64,000 bases of DNA from Enterobacteria phage ATK47, in sequence record NC_055708.1; one strand, given 5' to 3'. Positions within the stretch are counted from its first letter, which is position 1; each line of letters opens with the position of its first letter. The position numbers were made by a program, and so were the translations under genes. The notes under the pieces are model-generated. The model saw only the letters and a list, made by a program, of their open reading frames with translations. It was not told the DNA's origin and ran no database searches. Positions 3,471 to 4,233 of this stretch are shown here, one piece after another.

Positions 3471-3685
3471 CTAAAGAACAGCATGAATACATTAAAGGGC
3501 TTATCTATGAATCTGAAATGGCGGCTATGATTTATGGGCGCCAGATTCAACGATTAGAATCTTTGCCTCCGACTAATGACCGATTGTTAGTTCAGTCTCG
3601 TGCTAATCTGAAAAATGAATATCAGAATAAGTGGGCAGTAGCGACTAAAGCTCTTCACGAGTATATTGAATCTTTAGTAAAATAG
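3461..3685 (+). CDS. Hypothetical protein, 74 aa
   Basis: ORF with ATG overlapping the upstream stop (translational coupling); no recognisable motif. Confidence 0.4.
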   Translation: MPMTKEQHEYIKGLIYESEMAAMIYGRQIQRLESLPPTNDRLLVQSRANLKNEYQNKWAVATKALHEYIESLVK

Positions 3686-3714
3686 TTTACAAACTCTCAG
3701 GAGCAGAGTATAAT
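3685..3714 (+). promoter_or_regulatory. T4-type early promoter leading a two-ORF module
   Basis: GTTTAC at 3685-3690 and TATAAT at 3709-3714; GAGGA Shine-Dalgarno and ATG at 3743 follow. Confidence 0.6.
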
Positions 3715-3742
3715 GCTCCTATGGATAATTGAGGAAATCTAA

Positions 3743-4042
3743 ATGAAAACATTACTAGAGAATTACATCAAACGGTCTGATGAGTATATTGATATCTGTC
3801 GTGGAATGTCACTTGGCAATTATGACAAAGATGCAGCAAAGGCACTAGATGAAGCAGGTAAAGCTCTTCGTAAAGCTGCTAAAGAAAAAGGGTTGGATTT
3901 GCAACAACTCAAAAGTCATATGATTAAATTTATTTCTTCAAACGTTAGAAGTACGTCAATTAATAAAAACGTTGCTGAAATTAATAAAGACCGGCGCGAG
4001 CATAACATTCGTATTCTTGAAATTTTCTTAGGAATAAAATAA
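3743..4042 (+). CDS. Hypothetical protein, 99 aa
   Basis: ORF with GAGGA Shine-Dalgarno; predicted helical and charged; stop overlaps the next start (TAATG). Confidence 0.5.
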   Translation: MKTLLENYIKRSDEYIDICRGMSLGNYDKDAAKALDEAGKALRKAAKEKGLDLQQLKSHMIKFISSNVRSTSINKNVAEINKDRREHNIRILEIFLGIK

Positions 4043-4233
4043 TGGACCAAGCCAAAATCGATAAGTTAATCCATACGCTTGTAGCAGATATCAATACACG
4101 GGCTCTTCGTAAATCACAGAATGGCGATTCTTGGACTATGCAAGATTGCAAGAAAGGTGCTGAACTAGGACGTGAAATTGCTAAAATTCTTGGTGGACAA
4201 TTTGAATTTGCTGAAGAGGTAGTAAAACTGTGA
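4042..4233 (+). CDS. Hypothetical protein, 63 aa
   Basis: Translationally coupled to the upstream ORF; stop overlaps the GTG start of pseT. Confidence 0.4.

Follow-up and report, generated by a model that had tools for sequence, protein, structure and literature searches.

Directly upstream of pseT, the polynucleotide kinase/phosphatase gene of Enterobacteria phage ATK47, a predicted early promoter is followed by two small open reading frames (ORFs), ORF99 and ORF63, which encode proteins of 99 and 63 amino acids. We analyzed this segment within a 64,000-nucleotide stretch of the phage genome (NC_055708.1), hereafter called the window. The best overall explanation, which we judge somewhat better than even, is that three separable things lie side by side here: a promoter of the PeSL type, an old T-even gene (ORF99) and a mobile gene (ORF63). 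The anatomical and evolutionary account we hold with high confidence. The functional part, according to which each protein binds a conserved component of Enterobacterales and acts as a binder or in counter-defence, is tentative.

Bases 2300–5400 of the window are 100% identical to Enterobacteria phage ATK48, a member of the RB69 group (Mosigvirus), and ~150 Mosigvirus records match the locus at 93–100%. ORF99 and ORF63 correspond to RB69ORF231c and RB69ORF230c of RB69. The ATK48 record carries no annotation of ORF99 (ATK48 locus 3587–3942), and the RB69 record starts RB69ORF231c internally, giving 78 amino acids instead of 99 (RB69 locus 3265–3501). Five ORFs occupy the interval between alc and pseT in the window versus three in T4 (pseT.3, pseT.2 and pseT.1), where pseT.1 abuts pseT. 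The two small ORFs are joined by a TAATG overlap (4040–4044), and the TGA stop codon of ORF63 (4231–4233) overlaps the GTG start of pseT at 4230 (GTGA), so that ORF99, ORF63 and pseT are predicted to be translationally coupled in series. The original prediction, which took the promoter and the pair for an extra, lineage-specific module, had described these features accurately: the promoter, the GAGGA Shine-Dalgarno sequence, the ORF coordinates, both overlaps and the five ORFs against three in T4 are as it gave them.

Distribution and loss of ORF99

A tblastn search detected ORF99 in 707 phage records at 40–100% identity; PseT, at ≥60% identity, was found in ~757 records in a separate search. 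The holders of ORF99 belong to Tequatrovirus, Mosigvirus, Dhakavirus and Tegunavirus, together with the unclassified Tevenvirinae Yersinia phage MHG19. In every locus inspected, namely those of RB7, ime09, T6, T2 and Bas37 (Tequatrovirus), VR5 (Dhakavirus), TG1 (Tegunavirus), MHG19 and RB69, the gene adjoins pseT or has only ORF63 in between. In RB7, ime09, T6, Bas37, VR5, TG1 and MHG19 the ORF99 homologue ends in a stop codon that overlaps the pseT start, and the upstream neighbour varies. ORF99 matches phrog_2364 over residues 1–99 (E value 1.3e-48), and the RB69 locus matches the family profile at 6.4e-49. Because ORF99 is present in 707 records from several genera, always beside pseT, the idea of a lineage-specific insert does not hold for it.

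Neither ORF99 nor ORF63 was found when the complete T4 genome was searched in six frames with profiles (best E values 0.16 and 4.7, respectively), and no paralogue of either gene was present in the window or in T4. Alignment of T4 with RB7 and ime09 revealed a clean ~300-bp gap in T4 (T4 locus 6900–6915), located between the ATGAAAA of the ORF99 start and the ATGAAAA of the pseT start. A 120-bp T4-junction query matched 348 Tequatrovirus-type records. At most 59 of them aligned over ≥80% of the query at a single place, and a number of these 59 still contain the insert as two pieces. Other copies are damaged rather than deleted. The ORF99 of T2 is frameshifted after codon 5 and annotated as an 82-amino-acid remnant (PV648363, 1189–1506), and that of Yersinia phage TG1 is broken into two short ORFs (TG1 locus 2501–2788); the T6 copy is intact. 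Parsimony makes ORF99 an ancestral gene of the E. coli T-even group that has been lost or broken several times, with T4 as the exception. The notion of an extra, lineage-specific insert was thus correct in that the pair is absent from T4 and lies in a variable early-gene slot, but it fails for ORF99, which sits beside pseT across genera and is missing from T4 through a clean deletion. T4 is atypical at this locus, which makes absence from T4 a poor test of whether a gene is accessory. The deleted, frameshifted and intact states in T4, T2 and T6 form a natural series for comparison, should a phenotype of ORF99 be sought.

Distribution and mobility of ORF63

At ≥95% identity ORF63 is restricted to Mosigvirus (147 records), and relatives at 53–70% identity occur outside this genus. 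The gene lies directly 5' of pseT in Kanagawavirus Q7622 and is absent from its congener CIP9, the difference being a precise indel flanked by ATGAA at the coupled stop/start junction. Two Klebsiella phages, JD18 and MY02, carry relatives in the motA-asiA (arn) region, and in Moabite and other Serratia jumbo phages the domain forms the C-terminal residues 106–158 of a 158-amino-acid protein. A conserved core, LVxDINTRAL..Q.G..WT..DCK.GA..GR, is nearly invariant across these very different phages, and the ~50-residue hairpin domain is exchanged among unrelated phage lineages of E. coli, Klebsiella, Enterobacter and Serratia.

ORF63 matches phrog_8683 (E value 2.2e-42). An exhaustive hidden Markov model search of 1.84 billion cluster representatives returned just four clusters for the ORF63 profile, all from phages, with no bacterial relatives and no new fusions. 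With a query alignment joining the ORF99 and ORF63 families, a wider ORF99 set was obtained and Serratia ORF63 proteins were added; the Klebsiella ORF63 homologues were not returned. Judged from these comparisons, ORF63 is a separate small mobile gene, unrelated to ORF99.

A variable slot between pseT.2 and pseT

The segment between pseT.2 and pseT reads as a mosaic of four components: pseT.1, a gene for a 160-amino-acid protein (phrog_4482), ORF99 and ORF63. In T4 the slot holds pseT.1, and in RB7, ime09 and T6 it holds pseT.1 and ORF99. Mosigvirus carries pseT.1, the promoter, ORF99 and ORF63. The 160-amino-acid gene precedes ORF99 in VR5, and precedes a 73-amino-acid ORF and the broken ORF99 in TG1, while in MHG19 a version of 161 amino acids stands between pseT.1 and ORF99. 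Q7622 contains a 32-amino-acid ORF, the 160-amino-acid gene and ORF63; CIP9 contains a 32-amino-acid ORF followed by a 162-amino-acid gene. In Jiaodavirus a 161-amino-acid gene (134 amino acids in the KP179 annotation) is followed by a pseT.1-like gene. Indels at this locus, including the loss of ORF99 in T4 and the ORF63 difference between Q7622 and CIP9, are flanked by ATGAA(AA) at overlapping stop/start codons. This suggests that whole small genes may be gained and lost by recombination between repeats in start regions.

The phrog_4482 protein is itself conserved in this slot in Dhakavirus, Tegunavirus, Kanagawavirus and MHG19, where its gene lies upstream of ORF99, ORF63 or pseT, and it has no match in Pfam or NCBIfam. 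In the locus records the gene occupies 2022–2504 (L006), 1707–2186 (L007, TG1), 2522–3004 (L011), 2019–2504 (L012) and 2016–2504 (L013).

In Tequatrovirus, Dhakavirus, Tegunavirus and MHG19, ORF99 is found with no ORF63; the reverse, ORF63 with no ORF99, is seen in Kanagawavirus, Jiaodavirus, Marfavirus and Moabitevirus (Serratia jumbo phages). Because either is found without the other, the two genes are not an obligate pair of the kind expected of a toxin-antitoxin system or an obligate heteromer, and the two-gene module of the original prediction does not hold. That prediction amounts to a single lineage-specific insert made of the promoter, ORF99 and ORF63, with two components that work together in host takeover or anti-defence. 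It would account for the absence of the pair from T4, for the translational coupling of the ORFs behind a strong (consensus) early promoter, and for the presence of both genes in all Mosigvirus records (~146 with ORF99 at ≥90% identity and 147 with ORF63 at ≥95%). However, the three components differ in distribution: ORF99 without ORF63 and the promoter is the common state in the first four groups named above, ORF63 is found without ORF99 in the other four and also at other loci, and the operon runs on into pseT. We therefore consider such a module improbable. Both genes had already been deposited, annotated as hypothetical since the RB69 genome, and belong to PHROG families; regulatory elements of this type have likewise been described, and the locus is ordinary T-even accessory genome.

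Promoter and stem-loop element

With 11 of the 12 sigma-70 consensus positions, the promoter at 3686 (TTTACA-N17-TATAAT) outscores every other promoter-like site in the scanned 4.2 kb (2200–6400), and it is conserved in RB69. The GTTTAC named by the original prediction occupies 3685–3690. The consensus TTTACW-N17-TAYWAT, given for T4/PST early promoters by Comeau et al. 2014 (PMC4122927), occurs at seven sites in the window, all on the plus strand, versus 0.36 expected, so that the match at 3686 is not due to chance. An inverted repeat or hairpin was found in the spacer of all seven, two of these being strong. Five of the six other promoters are then followed by GAGGA(A) and ATG, and most stand directly after a stop codon.

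These features recall the PeSL (promoter-early stem-loop) elements described by Arbiol et al. 2010 (PMC2839356). In these, the stop codon of the preceding gene lies in AT-rich sequence and is followed by -35 and -10 elements, with a stem-loop placed within the spacer or across the -10 element, and by a Shine-Dalgarno sequence and a start codon. The same intergenic order of stop codon, promoter, Shine-Dalgarno sequence and start codon is present at 3683–3742, with two possible stems that are weak on their own: the TAG stop codon of pseT.1 (3683–3685) abuts the -35 element, and TTTACA-N17-TATAAT is followed by GAGGA and the ATG at 3743. As in the published PeSL cassettes (PMC2839356, PMC4122927), the element is repeated in the genome (seven copies in the window), small genes of unknown function lie behind it in a hyperplastic region, and the promoter fits the T4/PST consensus exactly. 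The window stems differ in being short and AT-rich, whereas those of RB49 and phi1 are GGGG...CCCC. A second difference is that the gene-sized indels at this locus are flanked by ATGAA(AA) microhomology at coupled junctions and not by two PeSLs. We read the seven promoters of the window, from their layout, as PeSL-type composite elements. A search of the window yielded no Rfam family at gathering score, and repeat analysis of 3300–4500 found only short, chance-level repeats.

Tequatroviruses have neither the promoter nor an intergenic region at this position, pseT.1 overlapping ORF99 there. A sequence scan detected no terminator-like site between ORF63 and pseT, and the next TTTACW-N17-TAYWAT promoter downstream is that at 5812. 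For these two reasons the promoter does not serve the pair alone, and the idea that it heads a module of two ORFs gives way to a longer unit that continues into pseT. The promoter at 3686 is best read as driving ORF99, ORF63, pseT, cd.4, a 74-amino-acid ORF and cd.3.

Selection and predicted structures

ORF99 and ORF63 are both under purifying selection, with pN far below pS. In comparisons with the window restricted to pairs with unsaturated synonymous divergence (dS), the ratio of nonsynonymous to synonymous divergence (dN/dS) was ~0.11–0.28 for ORF99 and ~0.09–0.21 for ORF63. Because nonsynonymous divergence is far below synonymous divergence, both are genuine coding genes. These values bear on the possibility that the ORFs act mainly in cis, as translated leaders that bring ribosomes to pseT, their products being irrelevant. 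All junctions do consist of overlapping stop and start codons (TAATG and GTGA here, ATGA in relatives), and knock-outs have no phenotype, as a leader function would predict. The amino-acid sequences are under strong purifying selection, and some of their polar residues are invariant between genera, which argues against it, as do the conservation of the ORF63 domain far from pseT and in a fusion protein, and the direct coupling of pseT to pseT.1 in T4. We consider a leader role very unlikely.

AlphaFold2 modelled ORF99, a basic 11-kDa protein, as a four-helix bundle (helices 2–20, 29–48, 53–69 and 75–95) with a predicted local distance difference test score (pLDDT) of 95.1. ORF63 was modelled as a helical hairpin (helices 3–27 and 33–50) with a disordered C-terminal tail (pLDDT 77.6). 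The closest known folds are generic up-down four-helix bundles and helical hairpins, such as Rop (PDB 1yo7) and Rex1BD (PDB 8j0h). The conserved polar positions of ORF99 are grouped in an AGKALRKAAK helix and a FISSN...N segment. Both products had been expected to be helical and to lack a recognisable motif, and the models and profile searches agree. Sub-threshold hits amounted to noise only (TnsD at E 0.0017 and the IS3-type helix-turn-helix protein 2jn6 at E 0.068), and our literature search on RB69ORF231c, RB69ORF230c, RB32ORF217c and pseT.1 found no functional study.

Several BASEL records label members of the ORF99 family 'putative homing endonuclease' (e.g. L023 1671–1982), which raises the possibility that ORF99 is a degenerate homing endonuclease or a remnant of one. 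The presence/absence polymorphism among close relatives would suit such an origin, and residues 38–70 weakly resemble the S..L..AI.KYG..NF helix region of SegC (E 0.16 in a T4-only search). However, hhalign comparison with an alignment of the T4 Seg, I-Tev and DenA GIY-YIG domains gave a probability of 0.5%, no nuclease match was found in Pfam or NCBIfam, the confident model is all-helical without a beta-sheet, and the gene occupies the same place in every genome and not scattered sites. With no GIY-YIG or HNH domain detected by profile, we rejected this reading as exceedingly improbable; the label is unsupported.

Transposon insertions in an ORF99 homologue

A preprint describing HIDEN-SEQ (doi 10.1101/2025.11.20.689424) reports genome-wide transposon insertions in Tequatrovirus Bas37 (MZ501089), and the insertion counts, fold changes and p values in this section are taken from it. 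The ORF99 homologue of Bas37, bas37_0056, is 48% identical to ORF99 over its full length (E value 9e-28) and lies directly 5' of pseT (bas37_0055). In E. coli K-12, insertions were recovered at 27 of its 30 TA sites, and the gene is classified as non-essential (Extended Data Table 7). Its log2 fold change was 0.08 in CFT073, -0.02 in CFE299 and -0.63 in CFE336, and -0.32, 0.14 and 0.15 in Data S5, S6 and S8, respectively (conditions not read), with an adjusted p of 1 in each. The corresponding values for pseT were -1.90 in CFE299 and -7.58 in CFE336, both with an adjusted p of 0. Neither K-12 nor any of the six comparisons, which include hosts that make pseT necessary, thus shows a requirement for the ORF99 family, and an anti-defence role for this family finds no support in this published genome-wide test.

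Two small genes to which the same preprint assigns anti-defence activity, T4 nrdC.1 (anti-Septu) and bas37_0203 (anti-Druantia III), resemble ORF99 in lying in early regions, lacking a domain or an informative structural neighbour, being non-essential in K-12 and varying among T-evens. They differ in showing host-specific depletion, which bas37_0056 showed in none of the six comparisons.

The insertion data also bear on whether ORF99 cooperates with PseT, or regulates it, in the repair of tRNA or RNA, for instance against PrrC-type anticodon nucleases. Such a role is suggested by the strict adjacency and the overlapping stop and start codons with pseT in all inspected loci, across four genera and MHG19 and with varying flanks, and ORF99 is basic (isoelectric point 9.55); its conserved AGKALRKAAK helix could contact nucleic acid. 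However, pseT insertions were eliminated in CFE336 and depleted in CFE299, whereas those in bas37_0056 were not significantly depleted in either. Another possible reason for the adjacency is that overlapping genes leave no intergenic recombination site between them. T4 PseT works with RnlA against PrrC, and it does so without ORF99. Because bas37_0056 is dispensable where PseT is indispensable and T4 PseT functions without ORF99, an obligatory role of ORF99 with PseT is argued against, and we regard a partnership as unlikely.

The cd.4 homologue, which follows pseT in the window, is 51% identical to bas37_0053 (E value 1e-26). Insertions in bas37_0053 were strongly depleted in Data S5 (log2 fold change -5.84, adjusted p 0), and because of this depletion the cd.4 homologue is a better anti-defence candidate at the locus than ORF99 or ORF63. 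In CFE299 the value was lower but not significant (-2.26, adjusted p 0.31). The authors made a bas37_0053 deletion plasmid, and the main text contains no discussion of this gene (doi 10.1101/2025.11.20.689424).

Proposed origin and role of the three elements

In the explanation we prefer, host sigma-70 RNA polymerase would fire the promoter immediately after infection, and ORF99, ORF63, pseT and the cd.4 to cd.3 genes would be transcribed as one early operon. ORF99 would be the old T-even resident directly 5' of pseT, repeatedly lost or broken, and ORF63 would have entered precisely where the coupled stop and start codons meet ahead of pseT. Neither protein would be an enzyme; each would bind a conserved Enterobacterales protein or nucleic acid early in infection. 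The benefit would be conditional, appearing only in unsampled hosts or conditions, for example in counter-defence or host takeover. A binder with a conditional benefit is suggested because the proteins are small and featureless, predicted to be expressed early, conserved in amino-acid sequence and dispensable in laboratory conditions.

Several points weigh against this explanation. The family and sequence-profile searches gave no positive evidence of a molecular function for ORF99 or ORF63, nothing scoring above threshold in Pfam, NCBIfam, PADLOC or PDB sequence profiles. The transposon data come from a Tequatrovirus homologue, 48% identical to ORF99, in few hosts, and ORF63 lies outside the tested phages. 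The direction of change, loss in T4 as opposed to gain elsewhere, rests on parsimony across genera, and the fraction of pseT-bearing phages with ORF99 is approximate, the 707 and 757 records coming from separate searches with partial and duplicate records. We infer the activity of the promoter and stem-loop from the consensus alone, and the 7-bp stem at the 3686 site is marginal in RNA folding (z -1.9; 6% of shuffled sequences fold equally well).

More speculatively still, ORF63 could represent a novel type of small protein that inhibits a conserved Enterobacterales factor, be it a defence system or a takeover target, and ORF99 could likewise counter a defence absent from the tested hosts. If so, ORF99 might contribute to differences in host range between T4 and those T-evens, T6 for example, that carry ORF99. 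Being compact and exchanged among families of phages, the ORF63 domain is a reasonable candidate for binder screens.

Other features of the window

The coordinates of the locus are collected in Table 1. A 156-amino-acid minus-strand ORF with a TTG start (3981–4451) was treated as spurious; it is antisense to three conserved coding genes.

Table 1 Features of the pseT locus and early promoters in the window
Feature	Position	Strand	Remarks
nrdB	29–658
denA	685–1095
rnlA	1152–2276
alc	2339–2839
pseT.3/Rz	2827–3183
pseT.2/Rz1 (spanin gene)	3180–3470
pseT.1 homologue, 74 amino acids	3461–3685	+	Annotated pseT.1 in ATK48 and RB69; phrog_2347; phmmer to T4 pseT.1 locus, E 1.4e-35
Intergenic region, 57 bp	Between pseT.1 and ORF99
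Predicted T-even early sigma-70-type promoter	3686–3714	+	TTTACA (3686–3691)-N17-TATAAT (3709–3714)
Two alternative short inverted repeats	3693–3720	+	In and around the promoter
Spacer stem	ACTCT 3693–3697, AGAGT 3705–3709	+
Stem over -10	AGGAGCA 3699–3705, TGCTCCT 3714–3720	+
Shine-Dalgarno GAGGA	3731–3735	+	7 nt 5' of the ORF99 ATG at 3743
ORF99, 99 amino acids	3743–4042	+	Isoelectric point 9.55; family of RB69ORF231c, RB32ORF217c and bas37_0056; phrog_2364
ORF63, 63 amino acids	4042–4233	+	Isoelectric point 6.55; family of RB69ORF230c; phrog_8683
pseT, polynucleotide kinase/phosphatase, 299 amino acids	4230–5129	+	GTG start; predicted downstream gene of the same early transcription unit
cd.4 homologue	5129–5320	+
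Seven predicted early promoters, TTTACW-N17-TAYWAT	1096, 2280, 3686, 5812, 16741, 29233, 32076	+ (all)

Behind the promoter at 5812, a 78-amino-acid ORF (5869–6105, plus strand) that is unannotated in ATK48 matches Pfam DUF7320 (E value 1.5e-35). Just upstream of the dCMP deaminase gene, the window encodes a 330-amino-acid, aroG-like DAHP synthase (6226–7218, plus strand; PF00793, E value 4.5e-75). T4 and RB69 are without this gene, and the same kind of DAHP synthase gene occupies the same slot in Kanagawavirus CIP9.

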